From the UHGV virus genome UHGV-0142988: 10,260 bases of DNA; one strand, written 5' to 3'. The notes under the pieces are model-generated. The model made no database searches. It worked only from the letters and a program-made list of their open reading frames with translations, and was not told the DNA's origin. A program made the translations under genes and the position numbers. The stretch comes from a virus. Shown here piece by piece: positions 39 to 10,260 of this stretch. Position 1 is the first letter of the stretch; every line of letters starts with the position of its first letter.

Positions 39-42
39 CTCA

Positions 43-238
43 TGTCCGCCCCACACGGACACTTCCCCAAATTTGTCCGTCCACCACGGACACTCACAGA
101 CACAGATGTCCTCTGTACGCACACAACGGACAAAATAATAGTGCAATATACACAACTATTACTGGAAATCAATCCAATAATTGTGCACATTGCACTATAA
201 AAATCAGTTATTTTAGAACATTATGCTCTTGTGTCCGT
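43..238. repeat. Terminal-region short repeats TGTCCG(T)/ACGGACA: two hairpin-capable inverted pairs (~43-61, ~74-92) plus solo copies (~126-132, ~232-238)
   Basis: Six copies of the 6-7-mer within ~200 bp directly after the adapter; the first two pairs are inverted repeats with 5-7 nt spacers. Confidence 0.6.
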
Positions 239-269
239 GTGTGAGAGACACATACAGGGGTGATGTTTT

Positions 270-283
270 CGAACATGTGTTCT
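270..283. promoter_or_regulatory. Candidate LexA/DinR SOS box (Cheo-box-like, cGAAC-atgt-GTTCt), with an overlapping GTTC-tat-GAAC
   Basis: GAAC-N4-GTTC with 5' flanking C, ~17 bp upstream of the predicted -35. This is the only such site I found in the window. Confidence 0.5.
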
Positions 284-299
284 ATGAACAATATGGACT

Positions 300-328
300 T
301 TGAATAAATCTAAATAATTACATATAAT
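300..328 (+). promoter_or_regulatory. Candidate sigma-A-type promoter for the rightward early operon
   Basis: TTGAAT (-35, ~300-305), 17-bp spacer, TATAAT (-10, ~323-328); ~30 bp upstream of a GAGGTG RBS and the ATG at 359. Confidence 0.5.
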
Positions 329-358
329 AATGTTATCAAATGAAAGAGAGGTGAACAG

Positions 359-508
359 ATGACAGATTACGAAGAAAGCTACAAAAATTATCTTGCATGG
401 CTCACTCCACGTGAGCTATTGCATGAATACAAGATCATGCGTTTACCGTGGCGTTATCGGGAACGAAAATGGATCAAAGAAGAAATAGAAAGTAGGTGTG
501 TGTACTAA
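359..508 (+). CDS. Small hypothetical protein (49 aa; MTDYEESYKNYLAWL...), below the ORF-track length cutoff
   Basis: ATG with GAGGTG RBS ~7 nt upstream; first ORF after the promoter; read by eye. Confidence 0.35.
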   Translation: MTDYEESYKNYLAWLTPRELLHEYKIMRLPWRYRERKWIKEEIESRCVY

Positions 509-602
509 TGTTGGATGCTATATTGTGGTTTGGTTTTGGTGCTATATTAATTTTTCCGTATGGAGTTTGGTGTGGGGCAAAATGGTCAGGAGGATATAAG
601 AA

Positions 603-806
603 ATGAAAAATTATTGTGATATATGTTTTACATGTAATGATGCTGAAGTTTGTCATTCATGTAGCCAGCCAGAGATTTGTTCCGAATTTAAAAAGTGTTT
701 TGATCATAAGCCTTATATAATGTGGGAGAAAATGACAAGTTTTGACGATATCATGAGATGTGTTGAGAAATGGAGGGTGTACAATGAGCAGACCGTTAAA
801 CAGTAA
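603..806 (+). CDS. Small Cys-rich protein (67 aa), possible zinc-ribbon-like
   Basis: AGGAGG RBS ~7 nt upstream of the ATG; CxxCxxC...CxxC spacing in the N-terminal 32 residues (seven Cys). Confidence 0.55.
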   Translation: MKNYCDICFTCNDAEVCHSCSQPEICSEFKKCFDHKPYIMWEKMTSFDDIMRCVEKWRVYNEQTVKQ

Positions 807-1041
807 GAAGTCATGGTATAAGGTATATATCAAAGAATTAAATACACCGAATATCATTAAAAGTCAGTGTAAATATAAATGCGATTATCTATTAGTAAAG
901 GCATACACAGGATCAGTCGCAATGGCAATCGTGCAGGACTACGTTGTCGAGTTTGAAGAAAATTTCCGTCCTGTATACTACAACAAATTGGAGGGAGGTG
1001 TTCCTATTGACAACAAAAAAGTCTTATTTGAAGAAGAGTAA
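784..1041 (+). CDS. Hypothetical protein (86 aa from internal ATG; track ORF begins at 760)
   Basis: GGAGGG RBS ~6 nt upstream of the ATG at 784; overlaps the 3' end of the previous gene; protein-like composition. Confidence 0.45.
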   Translation: MSRPLNSKKSWYKVYIKELNTPNIIKSQCKYKCDYLLVKAYTGSVAMAIVQDYVVEFEENFRPVYYNKLEGGVPIDNKKVLFEEE

Positions 1042-1648
1042 ACCACAAGGTCTTATAAGAACAAAAGACGATTATACGCCGCTTGCTCTCGAGTTAACAT
1101 GGGATATGAAAGACGTTAGAAAAGAGTATTCACGGTTAAGATCAATCTGGCGTAAACGTTATGAAAGATTACTGAAATCTGACTATAAAGATATCAACCT
1201 TGTAACGGATCGACCGATCCAACGTTACAAGCAGTTGAAAGATATAACAAGTGATAGAGAACTCTATCACTTGTTATCTGAACTATCAACTATTATAGGA
1301 TCAGATCGAACTACAGTAACAGGATTGAAAAAACGGGAAAAAGAGCAGATGGAACACATCAACGATGTGTATGGAACAGAGTTAAAAACGCACGAAGATT
1401 TATTAAATTTTGGACGTTTCATGGAACAGTTACGGGATTTTGCATCTGATAGAATATACGATTCTGATTTTGCAGTTGATTTATATTCTGATGGTGAAAA
1501 GCTGAGTACGGGCAAAATGTTAGAGCTATACAAGGAATTTTTGAAAACTGGATCACGTAACATCGAAAAATTGAAATCTGGCATAGCAAAGAAAGAAAAA
1601 GCGAAACGTCAGAAGAGGAAAGCAGGCAAACGTAAACGTAGGAGGTAA
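1007..1648 (+). CDS. Candidate terminal protein (~213 aa if started at TTG 1007; track ORF 944..1648)
   Basis: Directly upstream of, and translationally coupled to, the protein-primed DNA polymerase (its stop lies in the polymerase RBS). Strongly basic C-terminal tail KKEKAKRQKRKAGKRKRRR. GGAGGGAGGTG lies ~6 nt upstream of TTG 1007. Function is from synteny, not homology. Confidence 0.45.
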   Translation: MTTKKSYLKKSKPQGLIRTKDDYTPLALELTWDMKDVRKEYSRLRSIWRKRYERLLKSDYKDINLVTDRPIQRYKQLKDITSDRELYHLLSELSTIIGSDRTTVTGLKKREKEQMEHINDVYGTELKTHEDLLNFGRFMEQLRDFASDRIYDSDFAVDLYSDGEKLSTGKMLELYKEFLKTGSRNIEKLKSGIAKKEKAKRQKRKAGKRKRRR

Positions 1649-1651
1649 CAC

Positions 1652-3733
1652 ATGGAAAATCTGTATACTATTGACACATATAATTATAATAGAATACGGA
1701 ATTTACCATGTTTACATGATACTAGGTCTAACAAAGGAAGTAAAAAAGCAAAAGGTTATAAAAATTGTCTGTGTGCTTTCGATATCGAAACAACTAGATT
1801 GGAAGATATCGAGCAGTCAATAATGTATATCTGGCAGTTTTCAATTCTTTTTCTTGATGATTTACATGTTGATACGATAATTGGAAGAACGTGGACAGAA
1901 TTTGAGTTATTTCTTGATAATCTTATGAATGACGATAACTATGCATATTATATGATTTTTGTTCATAATCTTTCATATGAATTTCAGTTTTTGCGTGGTA
2001 TATATACATTTTCACCGGATGAAGTTTTTGCCATAAAATCACGTAGAATATTGAAATGTGAAATGTTAGAGCGTTTCGAGTTTCGTTGCTCATATTTACA
2101 AACTAATATGTCACTAAATACGTTTACCTCAAAAATGAAAGTAAAACATCAGAAATTATCTGGTGAAAAATTCGATTATAGTAAAAAGCGTTTTCCATGG
2201 ACAGAACTAACCGATTATGAAATAAAGTATAGTACATACGACACGATTGGACTAGTTGAAGCAATGTATAAACGTATGATACTGTCAAATGACAATCTAT
2301 ATACACTACCATTAACGTCAACCGGTTATGTACGTCGTGAAACGAAAAAAGCCATGTATGGTTGGTCACGAAAACACAAGGATATATTTCCCACTATAGA
2401 TGTTTTCGATCTGCTAGAGGAGGCGTTTCGGGGCGGAGATACTCACGCTAACCGTTATTACTCAGGAACCGTGATACGTGCATATGGTAAAAATATTCTA
2501 GGAATCGGTTCATATGATAGGTCATCCTCTTATCCTGACGTTGTGTTGAATTGTGTTTTCCCGATGACACGTTTTGTATATATCGGATCAATAGATGAAT
2601 CTGATATAGATAAGAAACTGGATAGAGGAAAAGCACTCTTATTCCGATGTAAAATAACAGGTATTGAGCAGATCGACAAGTATTACGGATCGCCCTATAT
2701 TTCATATTCAAAATGTAGAAATGTTTCATGTGAAACACTTGACAATGGGCGTATTTTAAGTGCTGACTATATTGAAATAACGCTCACTGATATTGATTAT
2801 GAGATAATGAAACGTGAGTACAAATGGAAACATTTTGAAATAACAGAGTGTTATGAGAGTAAATACGGAGCATTGCCAGAACCGTTGAAAGACATTTTCC
2901 GTAAATATTATACTGACAAAACAGAGTTAAAAGGAATCGTGGAACAGGAACTTTTCTACAACTTGCAAAAGGCTTTGCTTAACGCTGGCTATGGAATGAT
3001 GGTTCAATCACCCGTGAAACAGTCGTTAATATTTACAGAATCGGCAGAAAACATATATACAGTTGATGAAAATGTTTCACGTGAAACATTACTCACTAAA
3101 TATAACAGAACAGCTTTCTTGCCTTATCAATGGGGTGTTTGGGTAACAGCATGGGCACGCCAGCGATTGAAAGAGGGTATAAACATAGTTGGAGATCGTT
3201 ACGTTTACAGCGATACGGATTCAGTAAAATATATAAAAGTAAGAGGTGATAATATTGACGAGTTATTTGATAGATACAATTCTGAGAGAAAAGAGCAAAG
3301 TATCTCCAATTCCGCATACGCAACAGACCGTTATGGCGTTAAACATTATATGGGGGTGTATGAATTCGAGGATACGTATACTGAATTCTCCACCATTGGT
3401 ACAAAAAAATATGTCTATAGAACTAAAGATGGAAAACTACACGCAACAATCGCAGGAGTTAATAAAAAGCTTGCACCGGATGAGTTGGAAGAACATGGAG
3501 GAATTGAAGCTTTCAAAACTGGATTTACCTTTTTACGATCAGGAGGAACTGAAAGCGTGTACAATGACGTTCCTTATGGGGATTACACCGTGGAAAATCA
3601 TGTTTTAAAAATTACACAAAATGTAGTTATCAGACCGTCAACTTACACAATAGGAATAACAGATGAGTACCGTAGGATTTTGGCAGACGCAAGAACATTA
3701 AAAGAATTTAAATATACTTTTGACAAAAATTAA
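1652..3733 (+). CDS. Protein-primed family-B DNA polymerase (693 aa)
   Basis: AGGAGG RBS. Exo I FDIETT, Exo II HNLSYEF, Exo III YSTYDTIGLVEAM, motif A YDRSSSYP (Dx2SLYP-like), motif B KALLNAGYG (Kx3NSxYG-like), motif C YSDTDS, KxY in TIGTKKYVY. Confidence 0.95.
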   Translation: MENLYTIDTYNYNRIRNLPCLHDTRSNKGSKKAKGYKNCLCAFDIETTRLEDIEQSIMYIWQFSILFLDDLHVDTIIGRTWTEFELFLDNLMNDDNYAYYMIFVHNLSYEFQFLRGIYTFSPDEVFAIKSRRILKCEMLERFEFRCSYLQTNMSLNTFTSKMKVKHQKLSGEKFDYSKKRFPWTELTDYEIKYSTYDTIGLVEAMYKRMILSNDNLYTLPLTSTGYVRRETKKAMYGWSRKHKDIFPTIDVFDLLEEAFRGGDTHANRYYSGTVIRAYGKNILGIGSYDRSSSYPDVVLNCVFPMTRFVYIGSIDESDIDKKLDRGKALLFRCKITGIEQIDKYYGSPYISYSKCRNVSCETLDNGRILSADYIEITLTDIDYEIMKREYKWKHFEITECYESKYGALPEPLKDIFRKYYTDKTELKGIVEQELFYNLQKALLNAGYGMMVQSPVKQSLIFTESAENIYTVDENVSRETLLTKYNRTAFLPYQWGVWVTAWARQRLKEGINIVGDRYVYSDTDSVKYIKVRGDNIDELFDRYNSERKEQSISNSAYATDRYGVKHYMGVYEFEDTYTEFSTIGTKKYVYRTKDGKLHATIAGVNKKLAPDELEEHGGIEAFKTGFTFLRSGGTESVYNDVPYGDYTVENHVLKITQNVVIRPSTYTIGITDEYRRILADARTLKEFKYTFDKN

Positions 3734-3781
3734 CATATGTGTTATAATTCATGTAAAGAGATATTACAAGGAGGTGATAAT

Positions 3782-4036
3782 ATGAAAATTACACGTTCAT
3801 TAACAGTTAACAAGATCAACGTTATCTGCTACGATCCTGAGAATAAGTGTGAGTTTGTACAGGAAGTTGGTTTGATCGGAAATCTTACTGATGAGCAGAT
3901 CAGCAAAGAGATTAAAAAAAGAAATTTTGGAATTGTTATTGATTGGGAAAGAACATCAGAAGAAACAAAATTATACGGAATGGATGCCGAAGTGTTTTTA
4001 AAAAATGCAATCATTATTAAAGAAAAGGAGAACTAA
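3782..4036 (+). CDS. Hypothetical small protein (84 aa from internal ATG)
   Basis: AGGAGGTG RBS ~6 nt upstream of the ATG at 3782; sits between polymerase and ATPase genes. Confidence 0.55.
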   Translation: MKITRSLTVNKINVICYDPENKCEFVQEVGLIGNLTDEQISKEIKKRNFGIVIDWERTSEETKLYGMDAEVFLKNAIIIKEKEN

Positions 4037-4039
4037 ATC

Positions 4040-4474
4040 ATGGCAAAGAATTATACTATCATTAAATCATCGGGAAACCTTGATACCTATTCAGAATATG
4101 AACTCATCGAGTCACCTGCAATCGTTTCACTTAAAAACGTAGAAAACAAAGGACTTATCTGTGTTGGAGCGTGGGTGAAATATCTTACCACCGACAATAT
4201 CGGAAATGAAATAACCTGCATTTCAGTGCAGGACGCAAACACAGGAGAGGTATTCTCAGGTCAGTCAGCACCTTTCAGAGAAACATTCGAGGCTGTTACC
4301 GATCGTATTTCTGACATGGACGAAGCTCCAGAAATGTTTTTCATCGAGGTTCTTCATAGACAGTCAAAGTCAGGTCGTGATTATCTTATGTGCGCACTTG
4401 TTTCCCCGGATCGTGCTTTTGCCCGCATGGGATATACTGAAAAGAACATTCCTATGCCAGAGCCCCAGAAATAA
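4040..4474 (+). CDS. Hypothetical protein (144 aa); an SSB or DNA-binding role is only a positional guess
   Basis: AAGGAGA RBS before the ATG at 4040; tightly packed with neighbours; no motif recognised. Confidence 0.6.
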   Translation: MAKNYTIIKSSGNLDTYSEYELIESPAIVSLKNVENKGLICVGAWVKYLTTDNIGNEITCISVQDANTGEVFSGQSAPFRETFEAVTDRISDMDEAPEMFFIEVLHRQSKSGRDYLMCALVSPDRAFARMGYTEKNIPMPEPQK

Positions 4475-4475
4475 T

Positions 4476-5525
4476 ATGTTATCGTTATACGAAAATAGCG
4501 GGTATCTATCGATACCCGCTATTTTAGGATATGGACAAAAGTTTAATTACATCTGGGGTGGCCGTGGTACGGGGAAAACTTACGGTGCTCTTAAATACTG
4601 TATTGAACATAAAAAAATTTTTGCTTATATGCGATCATTGCAAACACAAATTGATATGATTAAAATTCCAGAACTTTCACCTTTTAAAAAATTAAATCGT
4701 GATTTAGGATGGTCAATATATCCGAAAAGTGTCGGGAAAAATATTGCTGTGTATTATAATGCAGAAATTGACGAAAATGGTAAAATAAAATATACTGGAG
4801 ATATACTCGGTTATTCCATAGCGTTAAATACATTTGCCAATTTACGAGGTTTTGATGCATCAGACGTTGAGATAGGAATATATGATGAATTTATCCCCGA
4901 AAAACGTGAACGCAAAGTTGAAAATGCTGGATATGCTTTTAAAAACGCATATGAAACAATGAATCGAAACCGTGAACTTGATGGAATTAATCCGATACAG
5001 TTTTTATTGTTTTCTAATTCTGAAAGTTTATCATGTGATATGTTTATAGAGAATAATTTAATGGAAAAAGTATCGAGCATGGATATTAATAAACAATCTA
5101 TGTCTATTATACGTGATAGAGGTATTGGACTTTTTAACTTGTATGATTCGCCGATTTCTGAAAAGAAAAAAGACACAGCTCTGTATAAAATGTCTGGATC
5201 AGATTCAGCATTTAACAGGATGGCACTAGGAAATGAATTTTATTCCGCTGATTATTCAGGAATTAGAAGCATGAACATTAAAGAACTGATACCACTATGT
5301 AAAATGGACGCTATTACAATATATCAGCACAAGAGAAAAGACTTAATATATGTAACACGGCACAGCTCTGGTACACCGCCAGAGTATTCCAATACAGATA
5401 AGGATGTAAAAGCTTTCAGACGAGATTTTATTTATTTATGGGATATGTATTTATCAAACAAGGTGCTGTTTGAGGATATCACAAGCAAGTCCCTATTTGA
5501 GATTTATTTTAAAAATAAATATTGA
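4476..5525 (+). CDS. P-loop ATPase, phi29 gp16-like DNA encapsidation ATPase candidate (349 aa from the ATG right after the upstream stop)
   Basis: Walker A GGRGTGKT near the N-terminus and Walker B EIGIYDEF about 110 residues later. Size and motif spacing fit phage packaging ATPases of the ASCE/FtsK-HerA class. Confidence 0.75.
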   Translation: MLSLYENSGYLSIPAILGYGQKFNYIWGGRGTGKTYGALKYCIEHKKIFAYMRSLQTQIDMIKIPELSPFKKLNRDLGWSIYPKSVGKNIAVYYNAEIDENGKIKYTGDILGYSIALNTFANLRGFDASDVEIGIYDEFIPEKRERKVENAGYAFKNAYETMNRNRELDGINPIQFLLFSNSESLSCDMFIENNLMEKVSSMDINKQSMSIIRDRGIGLFNLYDSPISEKKKDTALYKMSGSDSAFNRMALGNEFYSADYSGIRSMNIKELIPLCKMDAITIYQHKRKDLIYVTRHSSGTPPEYSNTDKDVKAFRRDFIYLWDMYLSNKVLFEDITSKSLFEIYFKNKY

Positions 5526-5671
5526 TTTTGTGTTTTATATCTGATATTATCTTTAATAGAAAGACAAGTGTTCGTGGCACACGTACAACACGTCGGGAGC
5601 GTGGGATCATAAGAATCCAATGTGCATGAGCATGTACAGCTCAAGAATTTGTAACACTTAATCTTTCATCA

Positions 5672-5708
5672 CATATGCAGAGTGTCAAAGCCTGCATATG
5701 TTTTGTTT
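5672..5708 (+). terminator. Candidate intrinsic terminator after the ATPase operon
   Basis: 9-bp stem CATATGCAG / CTGCATATG with an 11-nt loop, followed by TTTTGTTT. Confidence 0.55.
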
Positions 5709-5754
5709 CACGTGAAACATTTATCACCTTTCTTTAATGTTTCACGTGAAACAT
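5704..5754. promoter_or_regulatory. Tandem palindromic operator-like sites: TGTTTCACGTGAAACA (~5704-5719) and ATGTTTCACGTGAAACAT (~5737-5754)
   Basis: Two perfect 16-18-bp palindromes 33 bp apart, directly upstream of a TATAAT-like element (~5774-5779) and the RBS of the gene at 5791. Confidence 0.6.
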
Positions 5755-5790
5755 GTTATATGTTGTGCTAATATATAATGGAGGTGAAAT

Positions 5791-5988
5791 ATGGACGTTA
5801 ACTCATTATCAACTCTTATCAGTAACATTGGTGTGCCTTGCGCCTGCCTTATTGCGACTTTCTATCTTTGGCAGAAAGAAACGGATTCTCACAAAGAAGA
5901 AATGAAACGCATGACAGACGCACTCAACAACAACACTCAGGCACTTACAAAACTCACAGAACATATCACAGGAAGTGAAAAAAAATGA
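5791..5988 (+). CDS. Small single-pass membrane protein, holin-like (65 aa)
   Basis: GGAGGTG RBS; one hydrophobic segment (LSTLISNIGVPCACLIATFYLW) then a charged C-terminal tail; ATGA overlap with the next gene. Confidence 0.55.
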   Translation: MDVNSLSTLISNIGVPCACLIATFYLWQKETDSHKEEMKRMTDALNNNTQALTKLTEHITGSEKK

Positions 5989-6230
5989 CGATTAACTACA
6001 ACAAAAATATCAGAGGTGTGTATATCGTCGCAACGAACACAGGGCCTCTGATGGTCAGGGCAGAGCCTAGTACAGACGGAACAGTTATCGCAGAAATGCC
6101 GAAAAACACAAAATGCATCTGTCTAGGATGCTATTCTGGAAACTGGTATGCAGTCATTTACGAACATGACAGTATCATTTCCACCGGCTTTTCTCACAAA
6201 AATTATCTCAGGAGGGATTATAAGATATGA
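5985..6230 (+). CDS. Stand-alone SH3b-like cell-wall-binding domain protein (81 aa)
   Basis: Pattern GVYIVATNTGPLMVRAEPSTDGTVIAEMPKNTKCICLG...GNWYAVIYEH...GFSHKNYLRR resembles bacterial SH3 domains; no catalytic domain attached. Confidence 0.6.
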   Translation: MTINYNKNIRGVYIVATNTGPLMVRAEPSTDGTVIAEMPKNTKCICLGCYSGNWYAVIYEHDSIISTGFSHKNYLRRDYKI

Positions 6231-6421
6231 CGTTAGACAACTTAATTACACTCATTTCAGCAGGATTCACGAAAGAAGAGATCCTCACAATGTCAGGTAC
6301 AGTCACCCAGCGTGCCCCACAGCCACAGCCACAGCCACAGCCACAGCCACAGCCACAGCCACAGCCACAGCCACAAAATACAAAGCAGAAATTGCAAAAT
6401 CAAGATCTAAATACAAATTAA
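6227..6421 (+). CDS. Small protein with a (PQ)10 linker-like repeat (64 aa)
   Basis: ATGA overlap with the upstream gene; contains the in-frame hexamer repeat. Confidence 0.5.
   Translation: MTLDNLITLISAGFTKEEILTMSGTVTQRAPQPQPQPQPQPQPQPQPQPQNTKQKLQNQDLNTN
6317..6375. repeat. Tandem hexanucleotide repeat (CCACAG) x ~9.8
   Basis: Perfect tandem copies read directly in the sequence; encodes PQPQ... in the 6227 ORF frame. Confidence 0.95.
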
Positions 6422-6608
6422 GTGATATTTTAATTCGTGTAGAAAAAAATAGCCTTTATTTTTATTTGCGTAAATGATTCCTTTACTTTTAGCACTAAAA
6501 GCAAGAAAACTATAATTTTATAATTTTCTTTGTTTAAGGCCAGTAATGTTTTCGGCGTTTCAATTGTCCTCGACGAAGGCCGCTTCCGCGACCTTATCTA
6601 GCCCGTGC

Positions 6609-6965
6609 TCATTGAGAACGATCAACTACCATGTATGTTGGTTGACACAGGCTGCCGCGTTCCTGTAACCAGTAGTAATCAAGATCCGCAACACGCATAT
6701 CCAACCCCGAATCCACACGATTGATCTGTAACCGCAGCCCTACAGTATCTTTGTACGATAAACCAGATTTAACATTGTACTTGTACTTAACCCCGCTTTC
6801 TTCTTCAAAAGATTTGAGATAAGGGGGGATTTGCTTCTGAATTTCTTTCAAACAAATAACTTCCCCATCAATTACGAACGGCTTTTCAGTTTTACCGTCA
6901 GGAATAGTAGCCGCAATTGTGGTTAATGGAACTATCGACAACAGTACTGATAATGCTCTTTTCAT
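6609..6965 (-). CDS. Secreted small protein with N-terminal signal peptide (118 aa from the MKRALS start)
   Basis: AAGGGGA RBS before the internal ATG; MKRALSVLLSIVPLTTIAA is signal-peptide-like with no lipobox Cys; ~20 nt downstream of the partner gene. Confidence 0.6.
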   Translation of the reverse strand: MKRALSVLLSIVPLTTIAATIPDGKTEKPFVIDGEVICLKEIQKQIPPYLKSFEEESGVKYKYNVKSGLSYKDTVGLRLQINRVDSGLDMRVADLDYYWLQERGSLCQPTYMVVDRSQ

Positions 6966-6987
6966 CTGTTCTTCCCCTTGAATATAA

Positions 6988-7599
6988 TCATTGTTTAGAA
7001 CAAATTTGTGTAATGGTTGCATTATGGTTAAATTCAACATCAATTACTTTTATAGTATTATCATTAAGTACAGATACAAAATAATTACTTGACGAATTTC
7101 CGTACTTCCTTGAACCATCTGCTGCAATCTTGTTGAATTTAGCAGTATACACACTATCTTTATCGCCGGGAATTGGCATTCGACTGATTAATTCATTATC
7201 GGAAATAGTATAATAAATTAAAATTCCTTTATCTGAATAGTAACCTGAATCGCTTTTTGTTCCCTGTCGAGTTTGTATTATTGCATCGAACTTATCGCAT
7301 TTATAAACATTGGTTTTGGCCTTTTCAGTACTGGTAGACGTTGAAGCCTTTACATCAGTACTTTTATCTTGTGAAACAACCCCGGAACCGATACCTACCG
7401 AAACGACAAAGACAATAAAACTCATGCCTAACGACGTAATCAAAGTACGGAACTTTCCCCGACCTTTATTTCTGGAATAGTTTGAAACTTTCCTGAAAGT
7501 AAGTACTGCAAGGATCACACAAATGATGAAAACGACAAGCCCGGCCATAAAATCCCTCAAACGTTGTGTATCAAAGGCAATCATAGTATCACTTCGCAA
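6988..7599 (-). CDS. Two-TM membrane protein with Ser/Thr-rich ~130-aa extracytoplasmic domain (203 aa, or 198 aa from ATG 7584)
   Basis: Hydrophobic segments AGLVVFIICVILAVLTF and LITSLGMSFIVFVVSVGIGSGVV separated by a basic loop; TTG start in the track with an in-frame ATG 5 codons later. Confidence 0.6.
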   Translation of the reverse strand: MRSDTMIAFDTQRLRDFMAGLVVFIICVILAVLTFRKVSNYSRNKGRGKFRTLITSLGMSFIVFVVSVGIGSGVVSQDKSTDVKASTSTSTEKAKTNVYKCDKFDAIIQTRQGTKSDSGYYSDKGILIYYTISDNELISRMPIPGDKDSVYTAKFNKIAADGSRKYGNSSSNYFVSVLNDNTIKVIDVEFNHNATITQICSKQ

Positions 7600-7601
7600 T
7601 A

Positions 7602-7624
7602 CATTGATCGATTAAAGCGATCAA
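7602..7624. promoter_or_regulatory. Palindrome ATTGATCG-attaaag-CGATCAAT in a divergent control region (7600-7700) that also carries three ATCAAT copies
   Basis: 8-bp inverted repeat just upstream of the leftward gene start and upstream of the rightward leader. Confidence 0.35.
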
Positions 7625-7699
7625 TTTTTGATTTTCGATCGGTTAAATCTATCAATATCTATTAATTGAAGACAAATCAATAGGTAAAAACGATCAGAC

Positions 7700-8100
7700 G
7701 TTGGTCAGTACTTCGGAAACACCAGAAGTATGGTTTGGGTCTGCCGTTTAAACGCCCTCAGAAAACCGCTAAGGTCTCTTTATCGCATATGGCTTGGGAT
7801 TTCAGCCTTTGGCTAAAATCGCTTTCAGGGGGGCTTCTTGTGCGTTTTGTCGGGAACACCATCATGGAGGGGGATAAATCGGATCGAAGTCGCTTCGCTC
7901 TGGTCAGTACTGGAAGGGTTAGCTTATCTGGCGAGGGAAGATGAATTGCCAGGCTTCATGAAGATGGTTGGTTTTGTGGACAAGAAGAACTGCCGTTTTG
8001 AGTATTCCCCCTCACACCCAACAAACCTACCCATTAGCAAGGGGGAGTACTTTCTCGTAGTATACAGAACGAATAAATTCTTTGTATACTTCCGTTTTAT
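7700..8100 (+). ncRNA. Candidate structured 5' leader / cis-regulatory RNA (class unassigned)
   Basis: ~400 nt without a convincing ORF, visibly more GC than flanks. 12-bp stem (~8001-8012 / 8040-8051, one G-U pair) with a C/A-rich 27-nt loop, then an AT-rich hairpin (~8059-8090) plus U-tract just before the downstream start. The 11-mer TGGTCAGTACT occurs twice (~7703, ~7901). Confidence 0.35.
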
Positions 8101-8111
8101 CCTAAAGCGAT

Positions 8112-8801
8112 TTGATTATGGACGAGAATAATAAAGAAGTTATTGAAATAAGACCAGAAGATAAGGACTTTTTCGCAGAATTTATTGATTGTGAAGGTCC
8201 AATTATCCAAGATTCAATTGATCATAAAAAAATCACCCTCGCACTTGATAAAGCCCACGACATAAGAAAGTTTGAAATAGATCTCTATTGGAAGCGTGCT
8301 ACATACTTCTTCGCATTCTTCACTGTAATAACAGCTGCATTTGGTTATTTGTTCACCCATGACAACTATACTTTCTTAGCCCCTGCACTTGCGATCATTG
8401 GTTCTGTTTTTGCTTTATGTTTTTGTTATGTGAATATCGGTAGTAAGTATTGGCAAGAAAACTGGGAGTTTATAATTGATAAAATTGAATATTATGTCAC
8501 AGGAAACCTTTATAAACTTTTCTTCTTCGAAAACCATAGAACCAAACGCCCATCAGTCACTAAGATTAATATATTTCTAAGCAAGCTAATTATAGCTACA
8601 TGGTACGCTTGCTTTATACTTTCCATGCACCAGATATGGAATCAAAGCATGGTATTAAATGTCTCTTATATTATCCTTACCATATATAGCACTGGAACGA
8701 CATTATATTACTGCGATAAAACTGTTGCAGACATATCGAACAATGATAAAGAATCACCACGATTCTTTAGATTCAGAAATCCTAATTACATAAAATCATA
8801 A
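8112..8801 (+). CDS. Multi-pass (about 4 TM) membrane protein with ~60-aa soluble N-terminal domain (229 aa; probable ATG at 8118)
   Basis: Four hydrophobic segments (ATYFFAFFTVITAAFGYLF; FLAPALAIIGSVFALCFCYVNI; INIFLSKLIIATWYACFILSMH; MVLNVSYIILTIYSTGTTLYY); weak RBS. Confidence 0.65.
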   Translation: MIMDENNKEVIEIRPEDKDFFAEFIDCEGPIIQDSIDHKKITLALDKAHDIRKFEIDLYWKRATYFFAFFTVITAAFGYLFTHDNYTFLAPALAIIGSVFALCFCYVNIGSKYWQENWEFIIDKIEYYVTGNLYKLFFFENHRTKRPSVTKINIFLSKLIIATWYACFILSMHQIWNQSMVLNVSYIILTIYSTGTTLYYCDKTVADISNNDKESPRFFRFRNPNYIKS

Positions 8802-8805
8802 ACAT

Positions 8806-8824
8806 GGGGGCATTTGATGCCCCT
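8806..8824 (+). terminator. Candidate terminator hairpin GGGGCAT-ttg-ATGCCCC just after the stop codon
   Basis: Perfect 7-bp GC-rich stem with 3-nt loop; the downstream U-tract is weak on plus and better on the minus strand. Confidence 0.45.
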
Positions 8825-9065
8825 TGTAAATTGATAATCCGACCTAAAAACACTTTGAGTACTTCATTTGTCAGTACTGTTATCTGTTTGAGCGAAAGCG
8901 AGTAACGGCTTTGGCGTGCTTTCGAGTACTGCGAGAAAAACGCAAAGTTACGATCTGATATTTGGTTTTTATAGAGACTAACAAGCAAAGCGAAGTTAGG
9001 CTCTTTAGATACTGAATATCAGTAAGGCTAATACATTCAAAATATCAGGTGAAAGGCAATATTAT

Positions 9066-9194
9066 ATTAAGTTACGGTTATTCACCCCACTGCATAAAAC
9101 AAGAATAACCTACTGATTTTACGGACTTTTATTTGAATAATAATTCACTAATAATCATGATAACCGTATTTCTTAGTTTTAAGTTACGGTTATA
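9066..9194. repeat. 15-bp direct repeat TTAAGTTACGGTTAT (~9067-9081 and ~9179-9193) with an inverted partial copy ATAACCGTA (~9161-9169)
   Basis: Read directly; lies in a convergent intergenic region abutting the 3' end of the gene at 9202. Confidence 0.7.
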
Positions 9195-9201
9195 GGTACG
9201 A

Positions 9202-9669
9202 TTAAACAATGGTTCGTAGATATGCAATCAGATCTTTCGCTGAGGCATTACTGTTCAATAATTCCTGTACTGCGTTCTTCTGTTCGTCGGTTAATGGCTT
9301 ACCAGGCAATGCTTTCTTTAGTCCACATAGCGTACCACCTTCTTCTACAAACTTATCCAATGCTTTAGCAACTGCGGTACAGGCTAATTTGTACTTCTCG
9401 ATAGATGATTCACTTGCTGCAAATTTCTTCATCTGATCTGAACGGGTTAAGGTAAGATAATACTTAACCTGTACTTTTGAAAGCTCTGTAGCGTGTTTGA
9501 CGATGTAGAAGACATCTTTAACAGGTAACTTGTACTTTCCCAATGATTTACACTCTTGAATCGTCTGGTTAATTATTAGAGTTGCTTCTGATGTTAGGCC
9601 ACTGTAAGTAACACGTTTTAGTGCTTCTTCTAACTTTTTATTGTTATAAATCCTTTCTTTTTTTGCCAT
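9202..9669 (-). CDS. Hypothetical protein (155 aa)
   Basis: Clean ORF with ATG start; protein-like composition; no motif recognised. Confidence 0.6.
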   Translation of the reverse strand: MAKKERIYNNKKLEEALKRVTYSGLTSEATLIINQTIQECKSLGKYKLPVKDVFYIVKHATELSKVQVKYYLTLTRSDQMKKFAASESSIEKYKLACTAVAKALDKFVEEGGTLCGLKKALPGKPLTDEQKNAVQELLNSNASAKDLIAYLRTIV

Positions 9670-9759
9670 GATAAATACCCCTATGGAAGATGTTAATTAA
9701 TATTGGCCTGATGTATTCCTAATACTCAGGCTTTTTATTTAAGAAGAAAATGGGTGGGG

Positions 9760-10026
9760 TTATACTCCACGTACCTTCTTGAACCATTCACGATACTCTG
9801 GCACTTTATTTTTGCGTAAATTGCTAATGAAATCTTGATCGCAATTAACTTTAAGTAAATTACAAATCCTAGCACTTGTCATATCACTTAGTAGGATATT
9901 CTCGTACTGAGAGAATGTTAGTTGAATGAAATTAACCTTTTCTTTCTTTCGAACTGATTTGTTCAATGACTTCCTATTAGTCCTGATTTTATTTTTTGTT
10001 TTTATTTTACCGTTTTTCTTTGACAT
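9760..10026 (-). CDS. Small basic protein with possible C-terminal helix-turn-helix (88 aa)
   Basis: GGAGTG RBS before the ATG; very basic N-terminus (KKNGKIKTKNKIRTNRK) followed by an HTH-like segment. Confidence 0.55.
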   Translation of the reverse strand: MSKKNGKIKTKNKIRTNRKSLNKSVRKKEKVNFIQLTFSQYENILLSDMTSARICNLLKVNCDQDFISNLRKNKVPEYREWFKKVRGV

Positions 10027-10260
10027 TTTGTCACTCCTCTAAATTAAAATTCATCTCATGGTTAACCTCCTACGGCTGTTGTTTATGTTCGATTGGCTAT
10101 ATGTTAACGGGCAAAATTGCCCCAATCAAGGAATAGTTGCAACTTTTTCTTGACAAGATCATTACTATTCAAGTCAAAAAATCATATATCATTTAGGCAC
10201 TATCTTTGGGTAATGACTCCAACTTATTGATAGTGTTTTATGTTCAGATAATGCCCGATG

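Follow-up and report, generated by a model that had tools for sequence, protein, structure and literature searches.

A stand-alone SH3b gene in the endolysin slot of a phi29-like gut phage, and an assembler-made gene beside it in contig UHGV-0142988

Where is the enzyme of a phage lysis cassette in which a holin-like gene is followed by a wall-binding domain and by no catalytic domain? The question is raised by virus genome UHGV-0142988, a stretch of 10,260 nucleotides (nt) that we call the window and that is a whole SPAdes contig (ena:ERZ1755413 NODE_2955). Three small open reading frames (ORFs) follow each other at 5791–6421, and a preliminary description had read them as a holin-like protein, a stand-alone SH3b domain and a proline/glutamine (PQ) linker protein, coupled by ATGA overlaps. 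Both overlaps of start and stop are as described (5985–5988 between ORF1 and ORF2, 6227–6230 between ORF2 and ORF3), as are the coordinates, and Shine-Dalgarno-like motifs stand ahead of the three starts (GGAGGTG, GGAAGTG and AGGAGGG). Of the three-gene cassette itself, ORF1 and ORF2 are real, while ORF3 as read is a product of misassembly. The reading of the region as a lysis cassette whose enzyme is encoded elsewhere in the genome is partly supported. The parts discussed below are as follows.

5791–5988, plus strand: ORF1, 65 amino acids (aa), putative holin (weak PHROG holin match, topology and context)
5985–6230, plus strand: ORF2, 81 aa, free-standing SH3b (SH3_3) domain with neither signal peptide nor catalytic domain (Pfam, AlphaFold2, Foldseek and hhalign)
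6227–6421, plus strand: ORF3 as read, 64 aa, composed of the three pieces below
6227–6316, plus strand: genuine 5' end (about 30 codons) of the phage gene in the scaffold position, matching all relatives and encoding the conserved N-terminal motif MTLDNLITLISAGFTKEEILTMSG
6317–6375, plus strand: (CAGCCA)n misassembly junction, a repeat common to the phage gene and an E. coli gene
6376–6421, plus strand: last 14 codons and stop of the gene for a 558-aa hypothetical membrane protein of E. coli, read in the window as the ORF3 C-terminus

The window is a chimeric contig, in which a phage half (39 to about 6375) is joined to E. coli chromosome (6317–10208) through a common 55-nt stretch of (CAGCCA)n. 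For comparison we used 64 related viral contigs from IMG/VR, fetched with the packaging ATPase as probe, many of them 13.5–14.3 kb long with inverted terminal repeats. All 64 match the window from about position 39 to 6375 at most, and none matches anything further right. The segment 6317–10208 is 99.9% identical to many E. coli chromosomes, and 39–6316 has no E. coli match. Base by base, identity to E. coli begins at 6317 and identity to the phage runs on to 6371, as judged against a contig (L067) that is 100% identical to the window and ends at that point. The genes to the right of 6421 are found in E. coli chromosomes on an integrase-bounded island, in a region with glnK, amtB, tesB, hha and acrB (Pfam context). 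ORF3 contains (PQ)11, and its stop codon and last 14 residues (NTKQKLQNQDLNTN) are the exact C-terminus of the 558-aa E. coli protein, which ends in KA(QP)n QNTKQKLQNQDLNTN in the copy on L070 and whose gene end corresponds to window position 6421. ORF3 as read is an in-frame fusion made by the assembler out of a phage N-terminus, a PQ repeat and an E. coli tail, and is not a real protein; with it falls the earlier proposal of a lysin linker, the supposed linker being joined together from the phage gene in the scaffold position and a gene of E. coli.

Could the junction nevertheless be real, that is, could a recombinant phage–E. coli molecule exist and with it the 64-aa PQ protein? In favour of this, the contig runs on without a break and the frame does not change at the junction. 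However, the hexamer reads as PQ in both genes and therefore an in-frame join is automatic, and the exact common repeat of 55 nt is a typical k-mer size of SPAdes and its de Bruijn graph. All of the complete relatives (54/54) run on into the C-terminus of the scaffold-position gene and the capsid gene, four other contigs of the same phage end within the (CAGCCA)n repeat, and to the right of the join the sequence is normal E. coli chromosome, where the 558-aa gene exists in full. The ends of the contig speak the same language: positions 1–38 are a Nextera adapter (ending in AGATGTGTATAAGAGACAG), position 39 being where the inverted terminal repeats of the relatives begin, and positions 10204–10260 are a 57-nt terminal fragment of IS1, both signs of an unpolished metagenomic assembly. 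On the k-sized repeat, the continuity of the relatives and the breaks within the repeat we rejected a true recombinant, which is hardly credible.

Without its E. coli part, the window is the left half of a phi29-like podophage of about 14 kb from the human gut, with inverted terminal repeats, and its host is probably a Gram-positive member of the Bacillota. The late operon, for morphogenesis and lysis, opens with ORF1 and ORF2, which are present and keep their order in all relatives whose sequence extends over them. A tblastn search of phage records with ORF2, for cultured close relatives, returned one unannotated fecal contig only.

What is ORF2? It matches Pfam SH3_3 (PF08239) with 28.0 bits at a cutoff of 27, and two of its orthologs match with 37.3 (L062) and 34.7 bits (P0138). 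An AlphaFold2 model built from a diverse alignment has a predicted local distance difference test score (pLDDT) of 97.1 and a predicted template modelling score (pTM) of 0.86. Its top Foldseek matches are 4krt (the SH3b domain of Psm, the endolysin of Clostridium perfringens phage phiSM101), 2krs, 2kt8, 9ovi, 2kyb and 7aqh (the binding domain of the phage 2638A endolysin), several of them clostridial SH3b domains, with a probability of 1.00 (0.99 for 7aqh) and target-normalised template modelling scores of 0.66–0.73 for single-domain targets (0.49 for 7aqh). An earlier model from 17 close homologs was poor (pLDDT 57) with meaningless Foldseek matches, and was replaced by the one described. The family profile run against PDB sequences gave only a weak match to 2kyb (E = 0.28). 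An exhaustive profile search with the family yielded 596 proteins at E <= 1e-3, mostly wall proteins with several SH3_3 repeats and lysins (CHAP–SH3_3 and Amidase_2–SH3_3), together with a handful of stand-alone proteins of 77–85 aa. In hhalign, ORF2 residues 4–77 align with residues 159–229 of the 231-aa endolysins that fill the same slot in a sister lineage (95.3% probability, E = 2e-8). Judged by sequence and modelled fold, ORF2 is an SH3b cell-wall-binding domain alone, homologous to the C-terminal binding domain of these endolysins and predicted to bind the wall, as the preliminary description had it for a domain without catalytic part. It occupies the slot of the endolysin after the holin.

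The homology to the C-terminal domain of the 231-aa endolysins makes it plausible that ORF2 arose by loss of a catalytic domain, and it had been suggested that the gene might be decayed. Is it then a functionless remnant? The ratio of nonsynonymous to synonymous substitution rates (dN/dS) of ORF2 is 0.04–0.2, comparable to that of the packaging ATPase, and all relatives preserve its length, its start codon and its Shine-Dalgarno motif. Among close homologs all 27 clusters are 81 aa or fragments, so that a longer version restored by frameshift, looked for in the window's clade, does not appear. Orthologs at 35–48% identity (L249, L250, L252 and L253) are still 77–85 aa long and still sit between holin-like and scaffold-like genes. 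A gene held at about 80 aa over such divergence argues strongly against decay, and we regard a remnant as very improbable. Residues 44–49 of ORF2 (window 6114–6131) include a cysteine triad, C44-x-C46-x-x-C49 (KCICLGCYSG), which is invariant in all ORF2 proteins of the window's clade, is missing in the more remote stand-alone orthologs L062, P0138 and P0152, and might hold a metal or form a disulfide.

The N-terminus of ORF1 is short and acidic; it is followed by one hydrophobic segment (residues 6–27, Kyte–Doolittle KD19 maximum 1.68) taken as a single transmembrane helix, in which G14 and P16 are invariant, and by an amphipathic, charged helix at the C-terminus (HKEEM...ALNNNT...KLT), the C-terminal 38 aa having 7 K/R and 7 D/E. 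Its dN/dS against the relatives is 0.04–0.09. The match to the PHROG 4898 'holin' family is weak for ORF1 itself (E = 1.3e-4), the top-scoring PHROG being a family of unknown function, and 7 of 8 diverse members of the ORF1 family match PHROG 4898, with a best E of 2.2e-10. PADLOC gave nothing for ORF1 or ORF2, and NCBIfam likewise. We collected 146 loci with a member of the ORF1 family and classified the gene directly downstream.

60 loci: 81-aa SH3b protein (the window's clade)
43 loci: Amidase_3 endolysin with a C-terminal binding domain
about 20 loci: 231-aa ELLD/Amidase_5/NlpC-P60 plus SH3_3 endolysin
11 loci: the scaffold-position gene directly
2 loci: Amidase_2 plus SPOR endolysin
2 loci: GH25 muramidase
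1 locus: NlpC/P60 endolysin
1 locus: 59-aa CW_7 protein (L248)

Since the family adjoins endolysins with five unrelated catalytic domains, ORF1 is best explained as a holin, in agreement with the earlier holin-like assignment, for which the single helix and the endolysin-adjacent family speak, beside the weak PHROG 4898 match; the genomic context is decisive. Alternatively it might act as an anchor or organiser at the membrane, in the manner of p16.7, the early membrane protein of phi29, or as a spanin-like protein, in which case ORF1 and ORF2 would form no lysis module. Holin families of Pfam and NCBIfam are not matched, the best PHROG is the family of unknown function, there are also weak matches to Rz-like spanins, and a weak homolog stands among replication genes in Amedibacillus phage AD70P2. 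Against this, ORF1 homologs lie directly upstream of bona fide endolysins at >65 loci, covering the five catalytic types, most of the family members compared match the PHROG holin family, and the size, the single helix and the charged C-terminus suit a holin, so that a different function appears quite unlikely.

If ORF2 brings no catalysis, which protein cuts the wall? Whole-genome annotation for hydrolases covered three genomes (L004, L252 and L253). In the complete relative L004, which has 16 genes, it gave one recognisable peptidoglycan hydrolase of about 375–400 aa, with an Amidase_5/ELLD (NlpC/P60-type) domain and a Phage_lysozyme2 domain. This protein belongs to the family of the phi29 tail-tip protein gp13, and its gene (9170–10369) comes after the capsid and tail-knob genes. 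A gp13-like protein is also the only hydrolase recognised in L252 and L253 (precomputed Pfam). In the window's clade the gp13-like gene lies about 3 kb downstream of ORF2, past the scaffold, capsid and tail-knob genes, and the suggestion that the catalytic part is to be sought outside the window was thus borne out, as far as the only recognisable hydrolase of the complete relatives is concerned.

A hidden Markov model (HMM) survey of the fetched genomes revealed a complementary pattern. All the stand-alone SH3b or CW_7 genes that it found belong to genomes whose holin-adjacent slot lacks a dedicated endolysin, and none was found in the approximately 65 genomes that have one there. An orphan CW_7 gene (59 aa) is present in the isolated Hungatella phage CH17P1 and in L248, in the order holin, CW_7, gp13-like, and in the clade of L208 the CW_7 gene runs 1 nt into the gp13-like gene. 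These CW_7-only genes are the equivalents of ORF2, as genes for a binding domain only.

Several features of the gp13-like proteins and of a neighbouring tail gene were recorded in the same genomes. In the SH3b clade (L003, L004 and L047) the gp13-like proteins carry about 40 extra residues at the N-terminus, which are conserved (…SNISMFVALMTSANAGQNPWGSGGAG.IGGLM…) and could be a docking or membrane-interacting segment, and they do not have the C-terminal 'KMPIW..RR' tail present in other lineages. In L253, a deep relative with a stand-alone SH3b gene, the gp13-like protein (9048–9674) is only 208 aa long and has Phage_lysozyme2 alone, and therefore the Cys-peptidase domain is not universal in the proposed partner enzyme. 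A second hydrolase (NlpC/P60) was suspected in the 560-aa tail-fibre protein of L004 from a C...H motif, and found no support from Pfam, PHROG, hhalign against the NlpC–SH3 endolysin family or phmmer against PDB. In this tail-fibre gene (L004 12013–13695) and its homologs an N-terminal anchor of about 80–130 aa is kept and the C-terminal part is swapped among genomes that are >90% identical, which is typical receptor-binding mosaicism, as expected of a receptor-binding protein.

How, then, might these phages lyse their host? The best reading, to which we give about even credence, is a two-gene lysin, with ORF2 as a trans-acting binding subunit and the gp13-like protein as the hydrolase. The operon that opens with ORF1 would be transcribed from a regulated promoter, after a hairpin and U-run in which the early operon appears to end. 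Late in infection the holin would accumulate and permeabilise the membrane; the cytoplasmic ORF2, a protein lacking a signal peptide, would then reach the wall, as would gp13-like hydrolase left unassembled. ORF2 would provide wall targeting in trans, a step that we find plausible at somewhat short of even, and the tail lysin would double as the endolysin. More tentative, and on balance doubtful, is the extension to a whole clade of phi29-like gut phages of 12–16 kb, which would have dispensed with a dedicated endolysin and would lyse with the gp13-like tail lysin plus an interchangeable, separately encoded binding subunit, SH3b here and CW_7 elsewhere.

A number of points weigh against a two-gene lysin. 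The two genes are far apart in the window's clade, at the distance of about 3 kb given above, and an interaction of ORF2 with the gp13-like protein, physical or functional, is hypothetical. No docking feature is common to the gp13-like proteins across the lineages with orphan binding genes, as the extension of about 40 aa is found in the SH3b clade and in none of the CW_7 clades. The survey covered two types of binding fold, SH3b and CW_7, and the complementary pattern perhaps rests on about three independent lineages. The holin call for ORF1 draws on context and weak profile matches. Further downstream, the scaffold-position protein belongs to no Pfam, PHROG or NCBIfam family, and its profile matched nothing below E = 1 among PDB sequences.

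The main rival, which we hold to be rather unlikely, is that ORF2 and the CW_7 orphans are virion-associated wall binders, partners of the gp13-like tail lysin at adsorption or entry and not at lysis. Such a role would fit the CW_7 orphans, as they are directly upstream of the gp13-like gene and translationally coupled to it (L208 clade, CH17P1 and L248); phi29 gp13 is a tail-tip protein used at penetration (PMC11476376), and ORF2 shares one operon with structural genes. However, in the window's clade ORF2 adjoins the holin, in the slot of soluble endolysins of sister lineages, and is homologous to endolysin binding domains, and a purely structural role does not predict that orphans occur only where the endolysin is missing. 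The same restriction to genomes without a dedicated endolysin is left unexplained if ORF2, as a free binding domain, serves to modulate lysis, for example by masking wall ligands against lysis from without or by stopping progeny from adsorbing to debris. This we consider improbable, although it would agree with the missing catalytic domain combined with strong purifying selection, and there are precedents: free binding-domain isoforms change the behaviour of the endolysin in other phages, according to two reports (PMC4777826, PMC12203907), and a stand-alone SH3 protein has been proposed as an auxiliary part of the lysis module of T1-like phages (PMC13164509).

The two-gene lysin has a functional analogue, the closest being PlyC of the streptococcal podophage C1, which is described as the single known case of an endolysin encoded by two genes (PMC6356687). 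PlyC combines catalytic PlyCA with eight wall-binding PlyCB subunits from a second gene. As in PlyC, the wall-binding subunit (about 70–80 aa) is encoded separately within the lysis module, the protein proposed as catalytic partner combines two catalytic domains, one of glycosidase type and one of Cys-peptidase type, and the phage is a small protein-primed podophage. Unlike in PlyC, the candidate partner is a gp13-like tail lysin 3 kb away with no adjacent dedicated catalytic gene, and the complex is hypothetical. The cassette of the window's clade holds no gene for a dedicated catalytic subunit, and the gp13-like gene is adjacent only in the CW_7 lineages. The SH3b fold is not known to be related to that of PlyCB. 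PlyCB is absent from the PDB sequence and fold matches of ORF2, which are all of SH3b type, no direct comparison with PlyCB having been made.

A free wall-binding domain that is made alongside the catalytic protein and acts with it is described in the reports on CTP1L, LysIME-EF1 and phage 2638A (PMC4777826, PMC7098653, PMC12203907). In CTP1L/CD27L, Lys170/LysIME-EF1 and phage 2638A the free domain is an in-frame product of the endolysin gene from an internal start. ORF2 resembles the CTP1L/Lys170 type in matching the binding-domain boundaries of the same-slot endolysins, but it has no in-frame catalytic domain upstream, where the holin gene lies in another frame. A 2026 paper states that the lysis modules of Gram-positive phages contain SH3 either as a fusion or on its own, and for Drexlerviridae (T1-like) coliphages it proposes a stand-alone SH3 protein encoded with the lysis genes as an auxiliary component (PMC13164509). 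This is also a small stand-alone protein of SH3 fold beside holin and lysis genes, conserved across its clade. However, the Drexlerviridae have Gram-negative hosts and keep a complete signal-arrest-release (SAR) endolysin, and their protein is DUF7244 and not SH3_3, whereas ORF2 replaces the endolysin in its slot.

In phi29 the counterparts to be considered are the holin gp14, the endolysin gp15, the tail lysin gp13 and the scaffold gp7. The genomes studied here share with phi29 the protein-primed polymerase, a p6-like protein, the gp16 ATPase, Phi29_MCP, the connector and the gp13-like Phage_lysozyme2 protein, as well as a small gene directly before the capsid gene, like gene 7. They differ in that no gp15-like endolysin was found, in that the holin is a 65-aa protein with one transmembrane helix that opens the late operon and has no Pfam holin match, and in that no similarity to gp7 could be detected in the scaffold-position protein. 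A 2024 review of phi29-like phages contains no mention of SH3, CW_7 or cell-wall-binding terms, so no orphan binding genes are described there (PMC11476376). What appears to be new is an orphan binding gene that replaces the endolysin in genomes keeping only a tail lysin, with two interchangeable folds.

If ORF3 is an artefact, what is the true third gene? In 54 of the 54 relatives covering the region its product is 132–185 aa long, and in 49 of the 54 complete relatives its stop lies in a TAATG that overlaps the start codon of the Phi29_MCP gene (Pfam Phi29_MCP match of the downstream gene, 8.5e-19); it is translationally coupled to the major capsid gene. The protein has 24 conserved residues at the N-terminus (M.l..li.L..AGFTk.eI), a P/Q-rich middle of hypervariable length and sequence, and about 50 conserved residues at the C-terminus ending in ..ASIINP.... 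The same layout before the capsid gene is seen in L249, L252 and L253, and by position the gene is the counterpart of phi29 gene 7 (scaffold). In tblastn searches the protein matched only unannotated gut contigs. The relatives do show three conserved independent small genes, which had been named as the outcome that would speak against a lysis-like cassette, but two of them are tied to lysis by their context. Metagenomic assemblies of this phage group repeatedly break off or have gaps in the low-complexity middle (PQ, PQQM or PV repeats), as at the ends of L066–L069, and a more distant relative (L252, 5790–6257) has an N-gap at the equivalent stretch. Because these repeats break assemblies, published contigs of the group often end at the scaffold-position gene.

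Upstream of ORF1 lie the genes of the early operon and two elements that may separate it from the late one.

upstream of ORF1, plus strand: 693-aa ORF, read as the protein-primed DNA polymerase from its position and from the Pfam DNA_pol_B_2 match of the syntenic gene in relatives
upstream of ORF1, plus strand: p6-like DNA-binding protein (Pfam and PHROG matches)
upstream of ORF1, plus strand: gp16-type packaging ATPase (Pfam and PHROG matches), the last gene of the upstream operon
5671–5708, plus strand: hairpin with a 10-bp stem (5671–5680 and 5692–5701), an inverted repeat after the packaging ATPase gene, followed by TTTTGTTT
5705–5718 and 5739–5752, no strand assigned: two exact copies of the 14-nt perfect palindrome GTTTCACGTGAAAC, 34 nt apart and 39–86 nt upstream of ORF1

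The RNA fold of 5660–5720 has an energy of −19.8 kcal/mol (z = −4.6 against shuffles), and the hairpin is probably an intrinsic terminator that divides the early from the late operon. A scan for consensus terminators did not detect it, because its stem is AT-rich. The palindrome GTTTCACGTGAAAC occurs in the 6.3 kb of phage DNA in three exact copies and one copy with one mismatch, the third exact copy (at 3074) and the mismatched copy (at 2723) both lying within the polymerase gene. Its core stands upstream of ORF1 in two copies in 51 relatives and in one copy in 11; among the distant relatives checked, none was found in L047, L052 and L062, and one copy in L208. The palindrome is likely the binding site of a phage regulator, and the pair is a candidate for operator sites at the promoter of the operon opening with ORF1. 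Rfam and tRNA scans of the window gave only sub-threshold noise of microRNA type, with the strongest match over the palindrome region.

The E. coli segment (6317–10208) encodes an octameric membrane protein of the RipA/8xMP type (PF24838, 8118–8801) and four small hypothetical proteins, and includes the 3' end of the 558-aa gene. In E. coli genomes an integrase and a resolvase flank this island segment, in which PADLOC found nothing significant.

For quality control, the window demonstrates that a coding hexamer repeat of 55 nt can weld a Gram-positive phage to E. coli in frame and yield a plausible fake protein, and any annotation of ORF3 or of a 'host' taken from this contig would be wrong. 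For the phages themselves, the orphan binding genes have two folds, are under selection and stand in or beside the lysis slot, and the only hydrolase detected in the three annotated genomes is a tail lysin; this points to a compact way of achieving lysis in phages with minimal genomes. The orphan genes also offer natural pairs of binding subunit and enzyme as candidates for enzybiotic design against gut Firmicutes. If the two-gene lysin is true, it would represent a second, independently evolved class of two-gene endolysins after PlyC, in which one hydrolase would serve for both entry and exit.

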